A DNA stretch of 58,240 nt from Candidatus Woesearchaeota archaeon (GCA_018302125.1 JAGWAC010000031.1:1-58240), one strand, 5' to 3'. Counted from the first letter of the stretch, positions 14,334-45,243 are shown. Made by a program: numbers and translations. Notes: generated by a model from the letters alone, not told the origin.

Positions 14334-14601
14334 TTAGATTTTTACAAGATCTTGCGTGAATTCCTGTTTATCCTGCAGGAGGTCACTGCTATTGGGATGC
14401 GATTTAGACATGCAAGTCAAGGATTCTTCGGAGTCCTGGCGTACGGCTCAGTAACACGTCGATAATCTGCCTTATGGTCTGGGATAACCTTGAGAAATTG
14501 AGGATAAGCCCAGATAAGAAAAAACTACTGGAATGTGTTTTTTCTGAAAAGCAATGCCATAAGATGAGTCGGCGGCTGATTAGGTAGTTGGTGAGGTAAA
14601 G

Positions 14602-14631
14602 ATTAGAATCAACCTTGATTCTAAATTACAA
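14602..14631 (+). other. 16S BHB intron, 30 nt (~E. coli 265/266)
   Basis: GTAA/TTAC helix, bulges AG^A and AA^G, 10-bp intron stem; splicing restores GGTGAGGTAAAGGCTCACC. Confidence 0.85.
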
Positions 14632-15117
14632 GCTCACCAAGCCTGTGATCAGTAAGGGGAATGAAAGTTCTGGCCTTGAGAAGGACACTGAGACAAGGGT
14701 CCTAGCCCTAAGGGGTGCAGCAGTCGCGAAACCTTTACAATGCGCGTAAGCGTGATAGGGGTATCCCAAGTGCCTACCTTCTGGGTAGGCTTTTGCTGAG
14801 TATAAATAGCTCAGAGAATAAGTGGTGGGCAAGACTGGTGCCAGCAGCCGCGGTAACCCCAGCGCCACAAGTGGTGACCACAATTATTGGGCCTAAAGCG
14901 TCCGTAGCTGGCTCAAAAAATCCTTTGTGAAATTGTTGGACTCAATCTAACAACGTGCAGAGGAGACTTTTGGGCTTGAGACCGGGAAGAGATAGAAGTA
15001 TTCCTTGGGGAGCGGTTAAATGTTATAATCCTTGGAGGACTACCAATAGCGAAGGCATCTATCTAGAACGGGTCTGACAGTGAGGGACGAAAGCTAGGGG
15101 AGCAACGCGGATTAGAT

Positions 15118-15201
15118 ATGGACAAGAAACTTATAAAATTTAAAATAATGTTGCAAAAAAATTAATTTATTTTAAATAAATGTCTCTTATGTTCACTAAA
15201 T
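15118..15201 (+). other. 16S BHB intron, 84 nt (~793/794)
   Basis: TTAG/CTAA helix, bulges AT^A and AT^A; splicing restores GGATTAGATACCCG. Confidence 0.9.
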
Positions 15202-15308
15202 ACCCGATTAGTCCTAGCTGTAAACGCTGCGAACTAGGTGTTGCATATTCTTTGGGAGTATGCAGTGCCGGAGCGAAGGTGTTAAGTTCGCCGCCTGGGA
15301 AGTACGGC

Positions 15309-15341
<33 letters not shown>

Positions 15342-16015
15342 CGCACTACAAGGGGTGAAGTGTGCGGTTTAATCTAACTCTACTCAGAAAATCTTACCAT
15401 GGGCGATGGCATGATGAAGGTCAGATTAAAGGTCTTACCTAAAGGGCCCAGAGATGCTGCATGGCCGTCGTCAGCTCGTGCCGTGAGGTGTCACGTTAAG
15501 TCGTGCAACGAGCAAGACCTACATTTATAGTTGCTAACGAGTCTTTTCGATGTTCGAGCACACTATGAAGACTGCCTTGGTAACAAGGAGGAAGGTGTAG
15601 GCAACGATAGGTCTGTATGGCTCGAATCTCATGGGATACACACGCACTGCAATGATAAGGACAATAGGATACAACTCCGTAAGGAGAAGTTAATCCCTCA
15701 AACCTTATCTTAGTTCAGATTGAGGGTTGTAACTCACCCTCATGAAGCCGGAATCCCTAGTAATCGGATATCATCAGTGTCCGGTGAATACGTCAATGTG
15801 CCTTGCACACACTGCCCATCAAGTCAACCGAGCAGAGTTTTGGTGAGGTTTAGTTTTTAGCTAAATCAAATCAGAGCTCAGTAAGGTGGGTTAAGTTGTC
15901 ACAAGGTATCTGTAGGGGAACCTGCAGATGGATCACCTCCTTTTATTTTATCTTTTACTAAGTACACAAACTAATTACATGCTTGAAAAAATTATGGGCC
16001 CGTAGCTCAGTCTGG

Positions 16016-16134: not shown

Positions 16135-17549
16135 TCCCGACGGGTCCACTCTAATCTTTTTTAGAAAAAGAGATTAATCAAAAAAAAATGGAAATATTTT
16201 TCCATAATTTTTTTGGTAAAGCTTTTTTCTTAAAAAAGGTTTAATGCAGCTCAGAAATTTGAAATAATTTTTGGGTGAAGAGAATCATCTAAAACTTTAC
16301 AAAAAGTTTTTTCACGCTCATTAGGAGATGATAAGAATTTTCTGTTAACGCTTTTTTGCGAGAAAAGATTAGTTCTTATTTTTGATGAAACTTTTTTTGA
16401 AAAAAGTTTCTAATGATTCTGTGCATAGGCAATTCGAGGTCTGATGTTCCTACTCCATTAGGTGAATGACTTGGCTCAAGTGCTGATGAAGGGCGTGGCA
16501 AGCTGCGATAAGTTCCAGTGAAGTGCACGCAACTTTTGAGCTGGAAATCCCTGAATGAGACTTCTCATTAGATCTGAAAAGATAGGGAACCCAGGGAATT
16601 GAAACATCTTAGTACCTGGAGGAAAAGAAATTAATAAAGATGTCGTGAGTATCAGCGAGAAAAAACGACATAGAGCAAACTGAATCTTTTTTAGAAATAA
16701 AAAAGAAATGTAGTGTAATAGGACCTTACTTATGATCTGAGTTAGATTTAGTCAAAGTTCTTTGGAAAAAGATACCTAAGAGGGTGATAGTCCCGTAGAT
16801 TAAACTAACAGACTTATAAGGTATCCTGAGTAGCGCTCATTGGATATTGGGCGTGAATTTGGGAGATATTAACTTCCAACTCTAAATACTACTTGAGACC
16901 GATAGCAAAAAGTACTGCGAAGGAAAGTTGAAAAGAACCTTTAACATGGAGTGAAAAGAACCTGAAACCTAATGGATACAGAATGATACTATTCTTCGGA
17001 ATTGTATCGTGCGTTTCGAATAACGAGCCAGGGAGTGCATTTAAGTGGCGAGAGTAAAAATTTTACAATTTGTACTCGCAAGGAAACTAAAAATCTGCAT
17101 TTCACGAAAGAGATTAGGTATGAAAGTGCCTAGAGTCACTTGAATGCGACCTGAATCCAGTCGATCTATCCCAGAGTAAGGTGAAGCAGGGGTAAAACCT
17201 TGTGGAGGCCTGAAGCAGTTCTAGTGTAAATCTGTTTGTATAACTTTGGATTAGGGGTGAAAAGCCAATCGAGACTGGTTATAGCTGGTTCCTGTCGAAA
17301 TAGGCCTTAGTCTAGTCTTGAATGAGGTAGTTGGAATTGTAGAGCTACGGATTTAGGAGCAAGGGGAAGAAATTCCTCCCTTCTTTGTCCAACTCCGAAT
17401 GTTCTAACATCATAGAATTCAGGAAAAAGCGGCGTGGGATAAGCTCATGTTGCAAGAGGGGAACAACCCAGACTATAGTTAAGGTCCCTAAATACTGGTT
17501 AAGTGTCAAAGGGTAAAAGGTGTATATAACCAGAGACATGAGGGAGGTA

Positions 17550-17592
<43 letters not shown>

Positions 17593-18384
17593 CTTTCAAG
17601 GTTATACGCCCTGAAGATGGACGGGGCTAAATCAGTTACCGATACTATAGACTAGTTTAAAAAACTAAGTGGTAGGCAGGCGCTTTATTAGGGTAGAAGC
17701 TTTTTCAAAAGAAAAAGTGGACCTAATAAAATTGAGAATCCTGGTAGTAGTAGGAGCAATATAGGGTAAGACTCCCTAATATCTGAAGAGTAAGGGTTTC
17801 TTAGCAATGCAAATCAGCTAAGAGTAAGTTAATCCTAACCAAAGGCCTAACAGGTCTTCGGGAATGGGAAAAAGGTTAATATTCCTTTACTGTTTAAGTA
17901 CATGTGGCAACACAAATTTAATTTCAGACGCTTTGGGCTAAATCAATATCTATTGTCGTAGATATTAATTAGAGCAAATCAAGGAAGTACTGTAATGGTG
18001 AGAACTTGATTAATTCTAAGAATAGTAGGCCTTATGGTTTATTTGATTGATGCCTTGAGCCCGTGAAAATGAAATTAATTGAATCTTGAACAATTATACC
18101 CAGAACCAACACAGGTACTCTAGGTGAGAAGCCTAAGATAAGATGGTCTAAACTAACTAAGGGAAATCGGCAATTTAGTTCCGTATCTTTGGTAGAAGGA
18201 ATCCCTGCGGTTGTGGTCTTATGATTGCAATTACAGGGCTCAGTAACAAGGCGGGTCCGACTGTTTAACAAAAACGCAACGTCTCGCAAGACAGCAATGT
18301 TGTGTATGAGACGTGACGTCTGCCCAGTGCAAGTATCTCAAACCTCTTTTCAAGGAGGCTAAGGACTTGTAAACGGCGGGAATA

Positions 18385-18516
18385 TTTGTTGTAAGGCGGT
18401 AAAGGGAGTACTTAGTTCAATATATATTGAGTATTGAGGCTGAAAGTAAAAGGAAATTTTTGGAAAATATTCCTGTTGAACATCCAGTACTCCTGAAAAA
18501 CCTTTAACAATTCTAG
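18385..18516 (+). other. 23S BHB intron, 132 nt (H69, ~1912/1913)
   Basis: GGAA/TTCT helix, bulges TA^T and AG^A; restores GGGAATAACTATAATTCTC. Confidence 0.85.
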
Positions 18517-18542
18517 ACTATAATTCTCTTAAGGTAGCGAAA

Positions 18543-18662
18543 TTATCATTAATCTCGCTTTAGATTTAAGATGAAAAAAAGCCATTCATCTAAGAGAATA
18601 GCCTTTGGGTTTGTTAAACAAATGAGAGAAAAATTTTAGCAATGGGATTAATGATATCGTTG
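18543..18662 (+). other. 23S BHB intron, 120 nt (~1938/1939)
   Basis: GCGA/TCGT helix, bulges AA^T and TG^T; restores AAGGTAGCGAAATACCTTGTCG. Confidence 0.85.
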
Positions 18663-19164
18663 TACCTTGTCGTTTGAATGACGACGCGCATGAATGGCGT
18701 AACGAGATCCGCACTGTCCCTAGTTAGTGTCCACTGAAAATACCCTTCTGGTGTGCAGGCCAGAGACCTCCAGCGGGAAGAAAAGACCCCGTAGAACTTT
18801 ACTGTAGTTTGTTGTTGTGATATAGATTCTACTGTGTAGCATAGGTGGTAGTTGCTATGCCTTGGCTGCTAGGTCAAGGATAGACAAAACTGAAATACCA
18901 CTCTGCAGAATTTATGTTGCTTACTAACCTGTTAGGACAGCAGCAGATAGACAGTTTGGCTGGGGCGGCACCCTGTTGAAAAGATATCAACAGGGCCCAA
19001 AGGTCAACTCAAGATGTTTGGAAATCATCTGAAGAGTGCAAGAGCAAAAGTTGGCTTGACTGGATTTTGACCATTAAAAAATCCAGAGACAAAAGTCTGG
19101 TCTAGCGAACCCCTATGTCCTTATTAATAGGGGCTAGGTATGACAGAAAAGCTATCTCGGGGAT

Positions 19165-19770
19165 AATCTAGGAGAAACATCAAAAGATTATATACAACTA
19201 TCACCGAGTATTAAATATGAATAAAAAATTTGCATATTTAATCGGTGTGTTGCATGATGCACATATTATCAACAAGAAATCAAATTCCCAATATGGTTTT
19301 GAAATTGAGCAAAAAAATAAAAAATACGCTGAATTTTTGTCAACTTTCTTTTCACAGTTATTCAAAATTGAAAAACCAAAGTTAGAATTACGTGAAAGAA
19401 GTTGGGGAAATTATTGGCGTATTAGAATTTATTCAAAGAAAATATTTGAAGAAATTGTTCAATATGACTTTACAAAAATAATTAAGTCGCAATCAAAACA
19501 AATTAAAAAGGAAATGATTCGAGGATTTTATGATGCTGAAGGATCAGTAAGCAGTGATGAAGTAAGAATGTTTAATAAAAATACAAAACTCTTAGAAACT
19601 TTGCATGATATTTTATCTACTGAGTTTAATTTAAGACTTGGAAAGATAGTTGTATCAAAGGATGATGTTTATCAGCTTCCAATTTATGCGAAAAATGATA
19701 AAAACAAGTTTATGAAAATTTTCAAACCAATTCATCCTGATAAGTTTAAGATTTTCTCTTAGATCCCTAG
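19165..19770 (+). mobile_element. 23S BHB intron, 606 nt (~2449/2450), homing-endonuclease-encoding
   Basis: GGGG/CCCT helix, bulges AT^A and AG^A, 12-bp intron stem; restores GGGGATAACTGAG. Confidence 0.9.
19217..19762 (+). CDS. two-motif LAGLIDADG homing endonuclease
   Basis: FAYLIGVLHDAH and MIRGFYDAEGSV motifs; lies wholly inside the intron. Confidence 0.9.
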   Translation: MNKKFAYLIGVLHDAHIINKKSNSQYGFEIEQKNKKYAEFLSTFFSQLFKIEKPKLELRERSWGNYWRIRIYSKKIFEEIVQYDFTKIIKSQSKQIKKEMIRGFYDAEGSVSSDEVRMFNKNTKLLETLHDILSTEFNLRLGKIVVSKDDVYQLPIYAKNDKNKFMKIFKPIHPDKFKIFS

Positions 19771-19855
19771 AACTGAGTCGTAGCGCCTAAGAGCTCATAT
19801 CGATGGCGCTGTTTGCTACTTCGACGTCGGCTCACCATATCCTGGCTGTGCAGAA

Positions 19856-20033
19856 TGTCGCAGGCAAAATTAACTCAATAGTTTTTCTAACCAAAAAATT
19901 CTAAGTCTTTTCTTCAAATTCTGTTAGTCAGAAGAATTAAAAATCTTCAAAAAGAAAAGACTAGTTAGAACTATAATAATTTCATATTCATTTTTAGAAA
20001 TTATTGAGAAAAATTTTGTCCTTCGAACTGTAG
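19856..20033 (+). other. 23S BHB intron, 178 nt (~2534/2535)
   Basis: GCAG/CTGT helix, bulges AA^T and AG^G; restores GGCTGTGCAGAAGCAGCC. Confidence 0.85.
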
Positions 20034-20087
20034 GCAGCCAAGGGTGGGGGTGTTCACCCATTAAAATGGTTCGTGAGCTGGGTTAAG

Positions 20088-20171
20088 GAACGGTTGTAAG
20101 CAAATGTATAAGCAAACTAAAACATCTCTGTATATTTGCTGAAGTGAGGTTTAAGTCCTCCCGTTTAATAT
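20088..20171 (+). other. 23S BHB intron, 84 nt (~2588/2589)
   Basis: GTTA/TAAT helix, bulges AG^G and AT^A, stem AACGG/CCGTT; restores GGGTTAAGAACGTTGTGAGACAG. Confidence 0.85.
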
Positions 20172-20572
20172 AACGTTGTGAGACAGTTTGGATTATATCT
20201 ACTGGAGGTGCATAATATCTGAGGGTAAGGATCATTTAGTACGAGAGGAACGGTGATTCGGAGCCTCTGGTCTATCGGTTGTCTGACAAGGCAGGCCGAG
20301 CAGCTACGCTCTAATGGATAACTCCTGAAAGCATCTAAGGAGGAAGCCAAACTCAAAACGAGATATAGGACGCTCAAAGAACATGAGCTTGATAGGACTG
20401 AAGTGTAAGTATGAAGCTTCGGCGACATATTCAGCTTGCAGTTACTAATCGTCCAAAACCATCAAACTTCAAATAATTGCCTATGTACATTTTTTATTTT
20501 TTAATTCTATAATTTTTATCAGAGAAATCTTAATATAATCAAATTTCCGGAGATTTTATTAAAGTGATTTAA

Positions 20573-21187
20573 ATGACAAAGCAAAGAAGATATGGAATTG
20601 ATGTTATTAATATCTACCTAACTCAATTAACAAATCCAAAATTCTCTTTAGAAGAAGAAAAAGGTCTAGCTGAAAGAGCAAGAATAGATGAAAAAGCGAG
20701 AGAAGAACTTTTGTTGGGTACATTGTGGGTGGTTCCAGCTATTGCCAATAGATTCATGGGAAGTGGCTTAGATTATATTGATTTAATTGGTGAGGGAAAT
20801 TACGGCCTTATAAAATCAATAAATTCATTGGATAAGTTTAGGGGGAGTAGCAGATTCAGCACTTATGCAGGAGAAATAATTCTTAACACAATATATGACT
20901 TGCTTAGAAAAGAAAAAAGGCAGGCTAAATTTAAAATAGAAGATTTTACAAAATTAGTTGATCAAAATCCAGGCCCATTAGAAATTTTAGAAAGAAAAGA
21001 ATTATTGGGGAATCTTGAAAAAGCAGTTGAAAATTTATCGCAAGCTGAAAAAAGTTTTTTAAGAAGTCTATTTGTAAAAGATAAGAAAATAAATGCAATA
21101 GCGCAGTCAGTTAATAGAAAAAAACTTTTTTTATATAGAAAAAGAAATAAAATATTTGAAAAAATAAAAGAAAAAATGAAAATTTAA
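20573..21187 (+). CDS. bacterial sigma70-family sigma-factor-like protein
   Basis: Region 1.2 DVINIYL..SLEEEKGLA; region 2 VVPAIANRFMGSGLDYIDLIGEGNYGLIKSI..RFSTYA; C-terminal region-4-like HTH. Confidence 0.85.
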   Translation: MTKQRRYGIDVINIYLTQLTNPKFSLEEEKGLAERARIDEKAREELLLGTLWVVPAIANRFMGSGLDYIDLIGEGNYGLIKSINSLDKFRGSSRFSTYAGEIILNTIYDLLRKEKRQAKFKIEDFTKLVDQNPGPLEILERKELLGNLEKAVENLSQAEKSFLRSLFVKDKKINAIAQSVNRKKLFLYRKRNKIFEKIKEKMKI

Positions 21188-22161
21188 AAATGTTCTAAAT
21201 ATTTCCAAGTTACTTCAATTTCTTCAACTCTCTCATAAGGACTTACATCAGTCTTTATTTTACTGCCAGAATTATATTCCAATATTCCTTGATAAGCAAT
21301 CATTGCACCATGATCACCACTATATTCTAAAGGTACAGAATAAAATTTTGCTTTTCTTTCATTACACATTATTGTAAGCATTTCTCTTAATCTTCTGTTT
21401 GCAGCCACCCCACCAATTAAAACCAATTCCTTTTTTCCGCAATTAGCCATTGCTCTTTCACTTACTTCAGTTAACATTGAAAAACAAGTTTCTTGCAAAC
21501 TAAAGCATAAATCTTCTTTCTTATTGCCTTTCATAAGTAAATCAGCAGCTTTGGTTATTATTCCTGAAAAGCTTAAATCCATCCCCTTAACAATATAGGG
21601 CAGTTCAGAATAGCTTCCTTTTTTAGCCAGTTCTTCAATTTTCGGGCCGCCTGGAAATCCCAAGCCTATTTCTCTTGCAAATTTATCCAAAGCATTTCCT
21701 ATAGCTAAATCCAAAGATTCCCCAACTTGGTGAAATCTTTTATTTTCCAAAATTAAAATTTGCGTGTTTGCTCCAGATACAAATAAGTAAATTGGATCTT
21801 TAACTTTCGTGTGAAAATGAGCAGAACTTAAGTGGCTTGCAACATGATTAACACCAATAATGGGCAAATTCATTTCTTTTCCAAATTCCAATGCAATTTT
21901 CCTTCCTTCATGTAAACTAGGTGGCAATCCTGGGCTTCTTGAAAAACTTATCAAATCTATTTTGGGGTATTTTGCTTTCAAAATAGCTTCTTCAATAATC
22001 CTTTTTCCAACTTTTCTATGATGCTTAGCAGCGTCAATTGGTATTATCCCGCCTTTTTCAGTTTTCAACATGTCTCTTGTATCAGAAAGAATTTTCTTTT
22101 TACTGGAAACTATTCCACATCCAAATGTATGGGAAGTTGATTCAATACCTAAGCATATCAT
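21184..22161 (-). CDS. kae1: Kae1/TsaD t6A synthase (KEOPS)
   Basis: LGIESTSHT, GVNHVASH, VSGANTQ, GNALDKFAR, GGVAAN, DHGAMIA. Confidence 0.95.
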   Translation of the reverse strand: MICLGIESTSHTFGCGIVSSKKKILSDTRDMLKTEKGGIIPIDAAKHHRKVGKRIIEEAILKAKYPKIDLISFSRSPGLPPSLHEGRKIALEFGKEMNLPIIGVNHVASHLSSAHFHTKVKDPIYLFVSGANTQILILENKRFHQVGESLDLAIGNALDKFAREIGLGFPGGPKIEELAKKGSYSELPYIVKGMDLSFSGIITKAADLLMKGNKKEDLCFSLQETCFSMLTEVSERAMANCGKKELVLIGGVAANRRLREMLTIMCNERKAKFYSVPLEYSGDHGAMIAYQGILEYNSGSKIKTDVSPYERVEEIEVTWKYLEHF

Positions 22162-22627: not shown

Positions 22628-23014
22628 TTATAATATAAATTTTGTTGTTTTTATTTCGTCATATAATTTCATGTAGTCTGGTGCTTTTGTTAAACTCTTT
22701 ATTTTAGCAAACTTTGAGCAAAGACCTTGAAAAAAATACAACAATTTTTCTTCTATTTCCTCTTCATTCTCAATTCTTGTTATATAGATATTTTGTAAAA
22801 TATCATTACTATCTTCCACTATCATCCTGTCTTTTTTCTTAATTTCCAATAAAATGCTGTTCACAATTTCCACTGGGTTCTTTAGATAAAATTGTTTCAC
22901 TATTTGCTCTACCTGATCATTTCTTGTAAATGTAATTCTTATAGATGAAATAGATTCTTTTGGTTTAAAGTCTAAAATCTCTAATTTTTTTACTCTGTAA
23001 ATTGTTTTCTGCAT
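22628..23014 (-). CDS. hypothetical protein
   Basis: ORF track; co-oriented in operon. Confidence 0.6.
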   Translation of the reverse strand: MQKTIYRVKKLEILDFKPKESISSIRITFTRNDQVEQIVKQFYLKNPVEIVNSILLEIKKKDRMIVEDSNDILQNIYITRIENEEEIEEKLLYFFQGLCSKFAKIKSLTKAPDYMKLYDEIKTTKFIL

Positions 23015-29799: not shown

Positions 29800-30006
29800 A
29801 TGAAAACATACTCAAAAACTAGAGCAATCGGAGGATCCTTGGTAGTTACAATACCGGCAAATATAGTCAAAGCCGAAAGAATAAAAGAAAATGAACTAGT
29901 AGAAATAGAAATAAAAAAAACCAAAAAAGACTATTTTGGTACTCTAAAAGGAATTGGACGTTTTACAGAAGAAGATGAATTAAAAGGTCAATTAGAAGAA
30001 GAATGA
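29800..30006 (+). CDS. AbrB/MazE-type antitoxin
   Basis: RAIGGSLVVTIP; overlaps the PIN gene. Confidence 0.85.
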   Translation: MKTYSKTRAIGGSLVVTIPANIVKAERIKENELVEIEIKKTKKDYFGTLKGIGRFTEEDELKGQLEEE

Positions 30007-30386
30007 AATACCTTATTGATGCATATGCCTGGGTTGAATATTTAACAGGAGGCAAGTTAGGAGAAAAAGTTAGAGAACTAATCCTAAGTGATAATGAAAT
30101 AATTTCTTTAAATATTACAATTGCTGAAGTGGTAAGCAAAATTAAAAGAAAAAAAGAAAATGCAGAAATAGCTTATAACGCAATAAATTCAAATTCACAA
30201 ATTATAAGCATAACTCCAGAAATAGCAAAAGAAGCTGGTATAATTCATGCAGAGACAAGAGAAAAAATTAAAAATTTTGGTTTAGTTGATGCTTTATTAT
30301 TAGTAATTGCAAGAGAAATAAAAGCAAAAATCATTACTGGAGATCATCACTTAAAAGATTTTAAAGAAGCCATTTTTATAGAATAA
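30003..30386 (+). CDS. vapC: VapC-like PIN toxin
   Basis: LIDAYAW, TIAEV, GLVDALL, ITGDHH. Confidence 0.85.
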   Translation: MKYLIDAYAWVEYLTGGKLGEKVRELILSDNEIISLNITIAEVVSKIKRKKENAEIAYNAINSNSQIISITPEIAKEAGIIHAETREKIKNFGLVDALLLVIAREIKAKIITGDHHLKDFKEAIFIE

Positions 30387-30946: not shown

Positions 30947-32248
30947 TTGTTAAATTATGATATCTTAAAATTCTACAGTAGAAAGGATATTCAAAAAGAG
31001 ATAATTAAATTATCCAAAAACAGAGAAGTAGCTGTTAATTTTGGGGAAAAAGGCTATGGAAAAAGGCCTGACACATTAGAATATGAGAATGATATTTTAG
31101 AATTGGCTAAACAAGGCGCAACCTCTTTTCATGTCTCATTAGAGCGCTTTAAAGACCCTTTAAAATTAAAAACAGGAATGTCTCAAAAAGAATTAGAAGG
31201 ATTAAGAACTGGTTTTGATATTATAATAGATTTAGATACAAAAATTTTCGAGATCTCCAAAATTTGTGCTTATTTAATTATCGAAGCATTAAAATTCCAT
31301 AACGTAAAAAATATTTCAGTGAAATTTTCAGGTAATAACGGAATGCATATTGGAATTCCTTTTGAAAGTTTTCCTTCCCGAGTAAATAATAAAGAAACTA
31401 AAACATTATTCCCAGACGGCATTAAAGTAGTAAATTATTATTTAAAAAATTTCATAAAAGATCATTTAAAAGAAAAAATCATTGATAATTTCTCACTAGA
31501 GGACATAAGTAATAAGTTAAAAAAATCCACAAATGAATTAAAAGAAAACAACCAGTTTAATCCCTTCAAAGTTATTGATATAGATTCTGTTTTAATTTCG
31601 CCAAGGCATTTATTCAGGTCTGTTTATAGCATAAACGAAAAAAGCGGTTTAGTAAGCATGCCTATTAACCTTAATAATATTTTAAAATTTAACAGGGAAG
31701 ACGCAAAAATAGAAAAAATAAAAATTGAAGAGCCTTTTTTAGAATTTAAAGGAAACAAAGCAGATGCTTCGGATTTAATTATTCAAGCATTTGATTTTTA
31801 TTCAAAAATCTCTGCAAGAAAAGATATTCAAATAAAAACAAGAAAAGAATTGTTCCAAGCAAAGAAAGAATATGAAATTCCAAAAATAGCAATTAAGGAA
31901 GAATTTTTCCCCCCATGCATCAAATTAATACTACAAGGAATTCAGCAAGATGGAAGAAAAAGAGCAATTTTCATTTTAATTAATTTTTTAAAAAAGATGG
32001 GCTGGTCTTTAGACCAAATACAAACAAGATTATTAGAATGGAACAAGGTAAACTATGAACCTTTAAGAGAAGGATATATTATTTCACAGATAAATTGGCA
32101 TAAAAGACAAAAACAGGAGATTCCTCCCCCAAACTGCGATAATCCTAGCTATTATACTGGGATGTTGGTCTGTAAACCTGATTTCTATTGTAAAAAAATT
32201 AAAAATCCAATTCAGCATACAATGAAAAAAATAAATAAAGAAAATTAA
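30947..32248 (+). CDS. fused DNA primase PriS-PriL (TTG start)
   Basis: DLD and KFSGNNGMH (PriS); PPCI..GRKR..PNC..C..C (PriL Fe-S domain). Confidence 0.88.
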   Translation: MLNYDILKFYSRKDIQKEIIKLSKNREVAVNFGEKGYGKRPDTLEYENDILELAKQGATSFHVSLERFKDPLKLKTGMSQKELEGLRTGFDIIIDLDTKIFEISKICAYLIIEALKFHNVKNISVKFSGNNGMHIGIPFESFPSRVNNKETKTLFPDGIKVVNYYLKNFIKDHLKEKIIDNFSLEDISNKLKKSTNELKENNQFNPFKVIDIDSVLISPRHLFRSVYSINEKSGLVSMPINLNNILKFNREDAKIEKIKIEEPFLEFKGNKADASDLIIQAFDFYSKISARKDIQIKTRKELFQAKKEYEIPKIAIKEEFFPPCIKLILQGIQQDGRKRAIFILINFLKKMGWSLDQIQTRLLEWNKVNYEPLREGYIISQINWHKRQKQEIPPPNCDNPSYYTGMLVCKPDFYCKKIKNPIQHTMKKINKEN

Positions 32249-43085: not shown

Positions 43086-43233
43086 GTTTTAATTTTTCGA
43101 ATTTTTTAGTTTTATAAATCTTCTGAGCAAGAAAACTTCAGGCTTTTACAGGCTGAGTAGTTTACATACTTTTTCAATCCACATACTTATTAAGAAAACT
43201 TTTATAAACAATGCTTTTTATTTTGAGAATTCT

Positions 43234-45243
43234 ATGATCTTAGGCAGAATAATTGGTAAAGTAACAACAAAAGAATTCACGTTTAAGGTAGAAAATAAGG
43301 CAGAAAAATTTGAATATGTGCAGATTCTTCATGATAATAAGTATATTTTAGCACAGATAGTGGAGATAGAAAAAGATATAGAAAAAGAAATAGCAATATG
43401 TAATGTTATTGGTTTTCGAGATGAAGATAATATACTAAAAACCTTAAAAACACCCTTCGCGCCAGGATATGAAGTTCTGAAAGCAGATGAAAAATTCATA
43501 AAACAAATTCTAAATTTGACAAAAACAGAAAATTCAGCTTTTATTGGAAAATTAAGCTACTATAATATTGACGTTTTCCTGGATCTAAATAAATTATTAA
43601 ACAAGCATATATCAGTTCTCGCAAAATCAGGTTCAGGAAAAAGCTTTTGTGCTTCTGTAATAATAGAAGAATTAATAGAAAAAAACATCCCCGTTCTGAT
43701 TATAGACCCTCACGGAGAATATAATGCATTAAAATATCCAAGTTCAAGCAAGGATAAATTAGAAAAATTTGGTTTAAAACCAAAGGGTTATTTAAAAAAT
43801 ATTCAAGAATATTCTCCAGATATATCTATTAATTCTGAGTGCAAGCCGTTAAAATTATCTGCTGTAAACATTTCAACAAGTGAATTAATGCATTTATTGC
43901 CGGCTAAATTAAATAATCAGCAAAAAGGAGTCTTGTATGCAGCACTAAAAAATATGGACAGCATTGACTTTAATTCTTTGATTTATTTTTTAGAATCCCA
44001 GGAATCTAATGTAAAATATACTTTAATAAGTATTATAGAATACTTAAAAAAATTAAATTTGTTTTCAGAAGAATTTACTTCGCTAAATGAATTAATTGTA
44101 CCTGGGAAATGTACAATTATAAATTTAAAAGGAATAGATCAGGAAATTCAGGAAGTTGTTGTATATAAATTAGCAAAAGACCTTTTTACAGAGAGAAAAA
44201 AAGGCAATATCCCCCCATTTTTTTTGGTTCTTGAAGAATCTCATAATTTTATTCCAGAAAGAAGTTTTTCAGAAGCAAAATCTTCTCCAATTTTAAGGCA
44301 GATTTTTGCAGAAGGAAGAAAATTTGGTCTTGGATGCTGTCTTATTAGCCAGAGACCATCTCGTGTCGATAAAAGCGCATTATCACAAATTACAACACAA
44401 ATTATTTTAAAAATTACTAACCCTAATGATATCAGAGCAGTATCAAATTCAGTAGAAGGAATAACATTAGAAACAGAAAAAGAAATTAAGAATATCCCAA
44501 TAGGAACAGCCCTGGTTGCAGGAGTTGTTGACCTCCCTTTATTTGTAAATATTCGGCCAAAAAAAACAAGGCATGGTGGAGAAAGCATAAGTCTTTTGGA
44601 TTCTGTAAGGCACATCCCGATTGAAAAAGATTCTGAAAATTTTGATGAAGATGTTAAAGATTCTGAAATTCTCCCAGTAATTAAGCAGAAAAACTCAGTT
44701 CAGGATTTAAAATTAATGGATGAATCAATAAAAACCATAAAAAGTGTCTTAATTCCTTGTGCTTATTTAACGTGCATAATAGATAAGGAAGAAACTCATT
44801 TGTTGGTAAACCTGAATACTGGTGAAATGATCAATGATTTTGAAAAAGGAAAAGGCAAAAAGGTGGATTTTTCCTTGCCTCAATTAAGCCCGACACAAAA
44901 TAAAATATTCAAGACAGCTCTCGATTTAAAGGAATTTTCAGCAGCAGAATTATTTTCCAGGTCTGGAGTCCAGTTTTCAGAAATATATGATATCATTAAT
45001 ATTTTAATTAATAAAGGATTGTTTATAAAAGAAAATTCTGCTTTTAAGCTAAGCCAGAAATTCAACTTAAACTTCAAGGATTTTTCTTGTTATGAAAAAG
45101 TGGATTATAACAAAGTAAATTCAGATCTAAAGCTTGAAAAAAAATTAAATCAAAATGATGTAAGGAATTTCTTCTCTTCCTTTGTTATAGTTAAAAACTT
45201 CAGGGAATGTTATTTGCAGACTTATGAAATTAAAAATAAGTAA
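43234..45243 (+). CDS. HerA-like ATPase (HAS barrel, DUF87) with C-terminal extension
   Basis: AKSGSGKS, IIDPHGEY, LEESHNF, EGRKFG, SQRPS. Confidence 0.88.
   Translation: MILGRIIGKVTTKEFTFKVENKAEKFEYVQILHDNKYILAQIVEIEKDIEKEIAICNVIGFRDEDNILKTLKTPFAPGYEVLKADEKFIKQILNLTKTENSAFIGKLSYYNIDVFLDLNKLLNKHISVLAKSGSGKSFCASVIIEELIEKNIPVLIIDPHGEYNALKYPSSSKDKLEKFGLKPKGYLKNIQEYSPDISINSECKPLKLSAVNISTSELMHLLPAKLNNQQKGVLYAALKNMDSIDFNSLIYFLESQESNVKYTLISIIEYLKKLNLFSEEFTSLNELIVPGKCTIINLKGIDQEIQEVVVYKLAKDLFTERKKGNIPPFFLVLEESHNFIPERSFSEAKSSPILRQIFAEGRKFGLGCCLISQRPSRVDKSALSQITTQIILKITNPNDIRAVSNSVEGITLETEKEIKNIPIGTALVAGVVDLPLFVNIRPKKTRHGGESISLLDSVRHIPIEKDSENFDEDVKDSEILPVIKQKNSVQDLKLMDESIKTIKSVLIPCAYLTCIIDKEETHLLVNLNTGEMINDFEKGKGKKVDFSLPQLSPTQNKIFKTALDLKEFSAAELFSRSGVQFSEIYDIINILINKGLFIKENSAFKLSQKFNLNFKDFSCYEKVDYNKVNSDLKLEKKLNQNDVRNFFSSFVIVKNFRECYLQTYEIKNK

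Follow-up and report, generated by a model that had tools for sequence, protein, structure and literature searches.

The stretch of DNA analyzed here (hereafter the window) comprises 58,240 nucleotides (nt) from a small Candidatus Woesearchaeota archaeon of groundwater (GCA_018302125.1, JAGWAC010000031.1:1-58240). It contains an intact gene for a sigma-70-family protein, a component otherwise typical of bacteria, placed directly behind the 23S ribosomal RNA (rRNA) gene. Sigma factors define transcription initiation in bacteria, and archaea use TBP, TFB, and TFE for the same step. A preliminary description of the sequence had drawn attention to this gene and suggested several roles for its product, from a repurposed regulator to an effector acting on a bacterial polymerase. 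The features at the center of the argument are as follows, with coordinates counted from the first nucleotide of the window.

20573..21187, + strand: sigma-70-family open reading frame (ORF) of 204 residues, isoelectric point (pI) 9.7; open frame with profile, PDB-sequence, and fold matches
20597..20692, + strand: region 1.2-like N-terminal helices, about residues 9-40; RpoS, RpoD, and SigA alignments, model helices at residues 11-17 and 26-35
20693..20926, + strand: sigma2 domain, about residues 41-118; Pfam Sigma70_r2, predicted local distance difference test (pLDDT) score 84-95
20927..20974, + strand: short, variable linker in place of region 3, about residues 119-134; pLDDT below 50 at residues 119-131
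20975..21184, + strand: sigma4-like four-helix domain with a helix-turn-helix, about residues 135-204; TIGR02937 and PHROG sigma families reach residue 202
14360-15941: archaeal 16S rRNA (Rfam)
16438..20468, + strand: archaeal 23S rRNA with insertions (Rfam RF02540, 2119.7 bits, full model)
21184..22161, - strand: kae1/tsaD, convergent to the sigma ORF with a 4-nt overlap; Pfam TsaD is found in this neighbor at all related loci

The ORF encodes a genuine sigma-70-family protein, which consists of region 1.2 and a sigma2 domain joined by a short disordered linker to a basic sigma4 domain. Pfam Sigma70_r2 (PF04542) matches residues 56-116 (E 2.4e-11, 43.7 bits, cutoff 24), and the NCBIfam model TIGR02937, which represents the superfamily of sigma70 and extracytoplasmic function (ECF) sigmas, aligns end to end over residues 42-202 (E 5.5e-23, 81.4 bits, cutoff 42.9). 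Residues 5-118, corresponding to regions 1.2 to 2.4, are aligned by the NCBIfam models of RpoS, RpoD, SigF/G, SigK, SigB, and RpoH. The nearest solved structures by sequence in the PDB are RpoS and SigA (E 2e-11), and the RpoS, SigA, and RpoD alignments begin at residues 5-12; matches of Pfam Sigma70_r1_2 in the relatives are faint. Region 3 gives no match with Pfam Sigma70_r3 in the window protein, and the gap of only about 16 residues between sigma2 and sigma4 leaves no room for it. The intact frame, the presence of regions 1.2 and 2, and the absence of region 3 had all been proposed in the preliminary description and are borne out, and the motifs it quoted lie at residues 70-79 (DLIGEGNYGL), 94-99 (RFSTYA), and 96-103 (STYAGEII).

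Structure prediction leads to the same assignment. An AlphaFold2 model built from a 15-sequence family alignment has a mean pLDDT of 79.7, with confident helical domains at about residues 20-115 and 140-200 and low confidence at residues 119-131. The sigma4 helices are predicted at residues 135-153, 157-168, 173-180, and 184-202 (pLDDT 81-89). In a Foldseek comparison with the PDB, the best 50 listed matches are all sigma factors, sigma32, sigmaS, SigA, sigmaE, AlgU, WhiG, and sigma28 among them, with alignments that cover both domains. The sigma4 domain carries a net charge of +10. All six syntenic copies examined, that is, the window copy and those of the related loci L001, L003, L010, L015, and L018, are basic, with pI values of 9.0-9.7.

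The sigma gene belongs to the archaeal chromosome. At 4031 nt, the 23S rRNA gene far exceeds the 2987 of the model and therefore carries insertions; its end at 20468 lies 104 nt before the sigma ATG on the same strand. The window also contains an archaeal RNase P RNA (Rfam) and encodes the ribosomal proteins S19e and L31e, an ERCC4/XPF nuclease with a Hef-type helicase, a PriS-PriL primase, Mre11/Rad50-like proteins, and archaeal-type aminoacyl-tRNA synthetases. Outside the rRNA genes, GC content is uniformly low throughout. An 822-nt contig, assembled separately from another public groundwater run, covers positions 20300-21101 with zero differences and thus spans the 23S end and most of the sigma gene. 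The window sigma protein was met on 30 contigs. Chimeric assembly, which the preliminary description had named as a danger, is ruled out by this difference-free contig together with the same junction in four other lineages. A tblastn search with three archaeal sigma types detected no second sigma gene in the window. No anti-sigma gene stands beside the ORF, whose neighbors, here and at all related loci, are the 23S gene and the convergent kae1.

Relatives of the window protein come from metagenomes and two NCBI assemblies. They include nine close sequences (57-64% identity, 206-220 residues) and about 12 more distant clusters, among them P0012, P0013, P0123, P0125, P0126, P0128, P0140, P0142, and P0243 at 26-38% identity; a singleton is thereby ruled out. 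Only six among 1.84 billion representative proteins reach E <1e-30. When GTDB species genomes and JGI metagenomes were scanned with patterns of the close group, every match was to a distant sigma, at 25-45% identity to the query; the genome-contig matches were from Butyrivibrio, and none belonged to the close group. Few strong matches in such large protein and contig sets indicate that the clade is rare. In a quick maximum-likelihood tree of 89 sigma sequences, one branch holds all 15 short proteins, with a support of 99 in the Shimodaira-Hasegawa-like approximate likelihood-ratio test (SH-aLRT). The stem and tips of this short clade are long, and the tree leaves its sister group among group-1-like sigmas unsettled.

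Gene order at the locus recurs among the relatives. Wherever enough flanking sequence is available, the sigma gene lies on the rRNA-operon strand about 100-150 nt past the 23S end and is followed by the convergent kae1/tsaD. Beyond kae1 come a conserved gene for a hypothetical protein of 128 residues, the guanylate kinase gene (gmk), a NUDIX gene, and a gene for an OLA1/YchF-type GTPase. The complete order 16S/23S-sigma-kae1-gmk-NUDIX-OLA1 is found again in L001, L003, and L010. The short contig L015 holds the 23S end, sigma, and kae1; L018 starts at the sigma gene and retains kae1-gmk-NUDIX-OLA1, and L002 and L004 are short copies of the sigma locus. In total, the 23S-sigma-kae1 order occurs in four further lineages and the kae1 adjacency in a fifth, at sigma identities down to 26%. 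The short clade has the architecture region 1.2, sigma2, a linker of 16-40 residues, and sigma4, and it is fixed between 23S and kae1 in a DPANN group. Phylogeny and synteny, the comparison called for in the preliminary description, agree that the window gene is a vertically inherited, chromosomal archaeal copy. As a side observation, the 128-residue protein (22628-23014, - strand) has no Pfam match, yet it is 72-88% identical across the related loci and always lies between kae1 and gmk, with a DoxX gene adjoining in some of them.

In addition to the short gene, one relative encodes a longer sigma paralogue, P0039 (293 residues, Trp dyad kept). It lies on the same contig as L010 (L012 8001-8882), between a radical-SAM gene and a gene for a HerA-like ATPase. 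The syntenic site in the window is an empty spacer of 148 nt (43086-43233), whose flanking genes are 64% and 78% identical to their counterparts. The window's own HerA/DUF87 ATPase (43234-45243), whose orthologue directly follows the second sigma paralogue in L012, shows a weak TrmB-type helix-turn-helix match near its C-terminus.

Between 23S and sigma, the 104-nt spacer exceeds the sigma gene in conservation, and its mean column identity over seven loci of five lineages is 77%. Its elements are listed below.

20475..20488, + strand: 3' strand of the 23S processing stem, AATTGCCTATGTAC; pairs in a co-fold with GTGCATAGGCAATT at 16421-16434, conserved in relatives
20490..20502, + strand: T6-A-T6 run, likely terminator of the rRNA transcript; conserved in relatives
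20521-20529, + strand: A-rich stretch resembling a B recognition element (BRE), just upstream of the TATA-like element
20530..20538, + strand: TATA-box-like element, TTAATATAA; conserved in the intergenic alignment of relatives
20564..20568, + strand: GTGAT, 4 nt before the ATG; complementary to the 16S 3' end, GATCACCTCC, at 15931-15940

The two strands of the apparent processing stem are complementary 14-mers that flank the 23S gene, the 5' strand lying just before it. Archaeal RNA polymerases terminate at oligo-T, and the T-rich run follows the stem. The TATA-like motif starts 43 nt before the sigma ATG, as it does at the NUDIX gene, and across the window such motifs cluster 29-47 nt ahead of start codons. 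The sigma gene probably has its own archaeal BRE/TATA promoter just past the rRNA terminator, with a transcript start predicted near 20559-20561 and read-through from the rRNA operon possible, and GTGAT may act as its Shine-Dalgarno sequence. A TATAAT at 20509-20514 was considered as a sigma-type promoter site and rejected, since it is not conserved in the relatives.

The protein divides clearly into conserved and variable surfaces. An E. coli-like sigma70 sequence that turned up in the protein search served as the reference for aligning the 15 short proteins, and residues are given in E. coli sigma70 numbering, anchored on that sequence. Equivalents of the region 2.2 residues D403, L404, I405, E407, G408, N409, G411, and L412 are kept in 11-15 of the 15 proteins; D403, E407, and N409 correspond to D70, E74, and N76 in the window protein. 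F427 and an aromatic residue at Y430 (Y98 in the window) are likewise kept. Elsewhere the family departs from the bacterial pattern: R385 is replaced by W in 10 of 15, Y425 by S in 13, and R441 by D in 10, Q437 becomes N or H, R436 and T440 are replaced or variable, and W433 and W434 give way to variable small or charged residues. In the window copy, Y425, W433, W434, Q437, T440, and R441 correspond to S93, E101, I102, N105, Y108, and D109. Region 2.3 therefore keeps FSTY and has lost the Trp dyad, as the preliminary description had noted, and of the seven aromatic and -10/-12 recognition residues tested in regions 2.3-2.4 only Y430 is retained. The longer archaeal paralogues P0039 and P0114 retain N383, R385, Y430, W433, W434, and R441.

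Pairwise identity within the close group follows the same division. It falls from 74% (regions 2.1-2.2) through 68% (N-terminus with region 1.2), 67% (region 2.3), 66% (region 4.1), and 59% (region 4.2) to 40% (region 2.4) and 32% (linker). Regions 2.1-2.2, which form the core-binding surface in bacteria, are thus the best conserved part of the protein, and region 2.4 and the linker are hypervariable. The earlier proposal that core binding was kept and promoter melting lost gains indirect support from this pattern and from the replaced recognition residues. Its argument from the Trp dyad does not stand by itself: ECF sigmas without the dyad still open promoters, so that its loss alone is no proof of lost melting. 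Hypervariability of region 2.4 is the better argument for lost promoter opening.

The same evidence bears on whether the protein could be a true alternative initiation factor, one that takes the archaeal polymerase to sigma-type promoters and opens them as ECF sigmas do. The two-domain sigma2-sigma4 layout and the end-to-end TIGR02937 match are compatible with such a role. So is the 2.3-2.4 helix of the short clade (FSTYAGEIILNTIYDLLRKEKR), whose arrangement N105...D109..R112-K113 resembles what we take to be the ECF pattern, a likeness consistent with the TIGR02937 match. However, region 2.4 varies widely among close orthologues, whereas the specificity regions of real sigma orthologues do not, and sigma-type promoters near the gene do not exceed chance (3 sites against 4.5 expected). 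In addition, the literature on archaeal initiation factors records no archaeal polymerase that uses a sigma (PMC7289017). We regard this alternative as very improbable.

The sigma gene evolves faster than any other gene of its neighborhood. Protein identities between the window and the related loci are as follows.

L001: sigma 61%, Kae1 90%, OLA1 80%, Gmk 83%
L003: sigma 61%, Kae1 87%, OLA1 82%, Gmk 74%
L010: sigma 34%, Kae1 81%, OLA1 75%, Gmk 59%
L015: sigma 35%, Kae1 77%, OLA1 and Gmk not available
L018: sigma 26%, Kae1 79%, OLA1 76%, Gmk 58%

The Kae1 proteins beside two sigma copies that are 57-62% identical to that of the window fall into the same 90% cluster as the window Kae1. Nonsynonymous divergence (dN, Nei-Gojobori method) of the sigma gene is 3-5 times that of its neighbors. 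For sigma, the ratio to synonymous divergence (dN/dS) lies at 0.23-0.58; the neighbors have roughly 0.01-0.22, with most values at about 0.05-0.15. Since dS is about 1 or more and saturated, only the relative values count. The reading frame is intact at the same locus in every lineage found. On these estimates, the gene is under purifying but relaxed or fast evolution; with dN/dS below 1 and the frame open throughout, the neutral drift considered in the preliminary description does not describe it.

Comparison with known systems places the protein inside the superfamily and outside its established groups. Sigma-70 genes (fam00359) have been reported as particularly prevalent in Woesearchaeota by Castelle et al. 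(2021, Front Microbiol, PMC8204110); mis-binning was excluded in that study, anti-sigma factors were not found, and the mechanism of control was left open. Given that report, the label "undescribed" in the preliminary description does not hold; full-text searches turned up no later work on the function of DPANN sigma-70 genes. The window gene resembles those genes (PMC8204110) in being a sigma-70-annotated gene on an otherwise archaeal contig of a DPANN-type organism, with no anti-sigma partner. The published account of fam00359 gives no anatomy (PMC8204110), and the window copy is distinguished by the loss of region 3 and of the Trp dyad, a fixed 23S-kae1 locus, and a very high evolutionary rate. 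Other archaeal copies differ from it: P0039 and P0114 (356 residues, named RpoD/SigA by NCBI, from a Nanoarchaeota archaeon) carry a near-complete group 1 signature and occupy other loci.

Relative to group 1/2 sigmas such as RpoD/SigA and RpoS, the best matches lie in regions 1.2-2.3, at about 36-40% identity to the RpoS and SigA structures, with the region 2.2 core-binding motif and FSTY in common. In contrast to these factors, the window copy lacks region 1.1 and region 3, has replaced Y425, W433, W434, Q437, T440, and R441, is basic rather than acidic, and belongs to a host with an archaeal polymerase. It resembles ECF sigmas (group 4; E. coli sigmaE, 1or7 and 6jbq) in its sigma2-linker-sigma4 layout of about 200 residues, its full TIGR02937 alignment, and a Trp-free 2.3-2.4 helix with the N...D..RK pattern; sigmaE and AlgU are also among its Foldseek matches. 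It departs from ECF sigmas in the presence of region 1.2 and in the lack of both an adjacent anti-sigma gene and a recognizable autoregulated sigma-type promoter. Judged by its sigma2 domain, region 2.2 motif of the DLIQEGNxGL type, and sigma4 domain, the protein is a member of the sigma-70 superfamily; the missing region 3 and replaced recognition residues set it apart from groups 1/2, as do region 1.2 and the missing anti-sigma from the ECF group. A short clade with region 1.2, sigma2, and sigma4, without sigma3 or the Trp dyad, at a fixed 23S-kae1 locus, with a high rate and a hypervariable region 2.4, was not found described.

Phage sigmas (PHROG 351 and 1740) and the defense-associated MzaA have sigma2 and sigma4 domains in common with the window protein. 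These matches, at about 31-42% identity over part of the protein, are no closer than those to cellular sigmas, and the locus is a conserved chromosomal housekeeping neighborhood as opposed to a virus or defense island. A phage origin was rejected for the first of these reasons, and the MzaA defense system because only the shared sigma2 domain matches.

The same neighborhood bears on the proposal that the protein is a cross-domain effector or decoy, which would block the beta-prime clamp helices of a bacterial polymerase in the manner of an anti-sigma70 factor, in a bacterial host or neighbor. Such a role would account for the retention of bacterial core-binding residues alongside the loss of the melting residues of groups 1-3, and rapid evolution could reflect conflict. 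Nevertheless, the N-terminus (MTKQRRYGIDV...) is unlike a signal peptide, judged by eye, the predicted promoter is of archaeal type, and no secretion or delivery genes lie among the housekeeping neighbors. Variability lies in region 2.4 and the linker rather than on the putative polymerase-binding face, and the DPANN hosts demonstrated so far are archaea, according to PMC8204110. The effector idea raised in the preliminary description finds no support here, and we consider it the least probable of the explanations.

The reading we prefer, at a probability of roughly 0.4, is that of an accessory regulator that would hold DNA through sigma4 while its sigma2 domain docks on a clamp-type coiled-coil, most likely that of the archaeon's own RNA polymerase. 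The archaeal polymerase clamp coiled-coil is homologous to the bacterial beta-prime clamp helices and serves as the docking site of TFE and Spt5. According to this reading, the protein would no longer act as a -10-recognizing, promoter-melting sigma. Its basic sigma4 helix-turn-helix would bind DNA, which is plausible because of the pI of 9.0-9.7 in six copies and the sigma4 net charge. The conserved 2.1-2.2 surface, with D70, E74, and N76, would dock on the coiled-coil, the most likely partner being the Rpo1N clamp at the site used by TFE and Spt5. The docked protein might then recruit or block the polymerase at particular sites.

A stand-alone DNA-binding regulator would dispense with polymerase contact, recognize operators through sigma4, and keep sigma2 as a scaffold or dimerization domain, much as the numerous helix-turn-helix regulators of bacterial type work in archaea. 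The basic protein with its strongly charged sigma4 fits this alternative, as do the loss of -10 recognition residues and the hypervariability of region 2.4. Yet conservation peaks in the outward-facing region 2.2 motif (D/E/N) and not in the sigma4 recognition helix. Free sigma factors, moreover, generally bind DNA poorly without core polymerase, which also counts against this option. We consider it somewhat unlikely.

Several observations weigh against an accessory regulator docked on the clamp. The conserved region 2.2 residues could be kept for folding and not for a partner. The region-4 helix-turn-helix, which the preliminary description had called diverged, is present as four model helices with TIGR02937 reaching residue 202, but Pfam Sigma70_r4 does not score on the window copy and is faint or weak in the relatives, and the turn of sigma4 falls two residues short of the usual length. 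The tiny metatranscriptome runs of the same studies contained none of the sigma gene's words. The absolute dN/dS values, with dS saturated at about 1 or more, are unreliable. Near-identical strains differ by three clustered single-nucleotide polymorphisms (SNPs) in the gene (20973-20997), all nonsynonymous (G134D, L136S, and K142R, the first two in or near the linker), and in one strain 18 nt (21025-21042) are deleted in frame (strain loci L028 and L029); three SNPs and one indel are too few for a population dN/dS. A gene on its way to loss could show the same fast evolution, nonsynonymous strain variants, and in-frame deletion.

The strain variants lead to the possibility of a decaying relic, that is, an old bacterial acquisition under weak constraint with little or no function left. 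The high rate of the gene relative to its neighborhood, the rarity of the family, and the absence of the second paralogue from its syntenic site in the window point the same way. On the other hand, the frame is open in every lineage found at the same locus, down to 26% identity, with dN/dS <1, the promoter elements are conserved, and conservation follows the domains, both of which are predicted to fold with confidence. A relic is therefore an improbable explanation. As a separate observation, both strain SNPs in kae1 are nonsynonymous as well.

The C-termini of the short clade show a further regularity. Ala-Ala ends 8 of the 15 representatives, and AS, SA, GA, or VA ends 5 more; among 110 other long ORFs of the same loci, AA occurs at the end of only 2. 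The window copy (ending KMKI, 21184) and one other member lack an end of this type. By analogy with ssrA-type tags, the Ala-Ala end could be a C-terminal degron. A more detailed and rather doubtful extension of the accessory-regulator reading would have a sigma-derived factor on the Rpo1N clamp steering or gating the TBP/TFB-dependent polymerase, with region 2.4 and the linker under diversifying pressure, and with the Ala-Ala end taking over, in most members, the role of an anti-sigma factor by switching the protein off through proteolysis.

The presence of sigma genes in these archaea has already been published, and the remaining value of the locus lies in mechanism. A long-kept sigma-derived protein in an archaeon suggests one of two things: a bacterial factor can work on the archaeal enzyme because the clamp surface of the polymerase is sufficiently interchangeable, or sigma domains can be reused as ordinary regulators. 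The short clade offers a convenient test case, as it is small, has two domains and a fixed locus, and separates conserved from hypervariable surfaces clearly.

Some minor observations concern other parts of the window. A LAGLIDADG homing-endonuclease ORF lies inside the 23S gene (19217-19762), and four ORFs with faint or weak LAGLIDADG matches lie within the rRNA operon of L001 (406-7183). A single ORF of 433 residues (30947-32248) has matches to the two subunits, small and large, of archaeal/eukaryotic DNA primase, which suggests a fused PriS-PriL. Rfam gives a weak tRNA match at 6869-6938 (- strand, 30.6 bits), while ARAGORN calls no tRNA in the 58-kb window, a combination that fits unusual or intron-bearing tRNA genes. 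Finally, two nucleotidyltransferase ORFs of the MNT/Pol-beta type and a PIN-domain ORF (4997-5548, 6177-6749, and 30003-30386) are probably toxin-antitoxin components.

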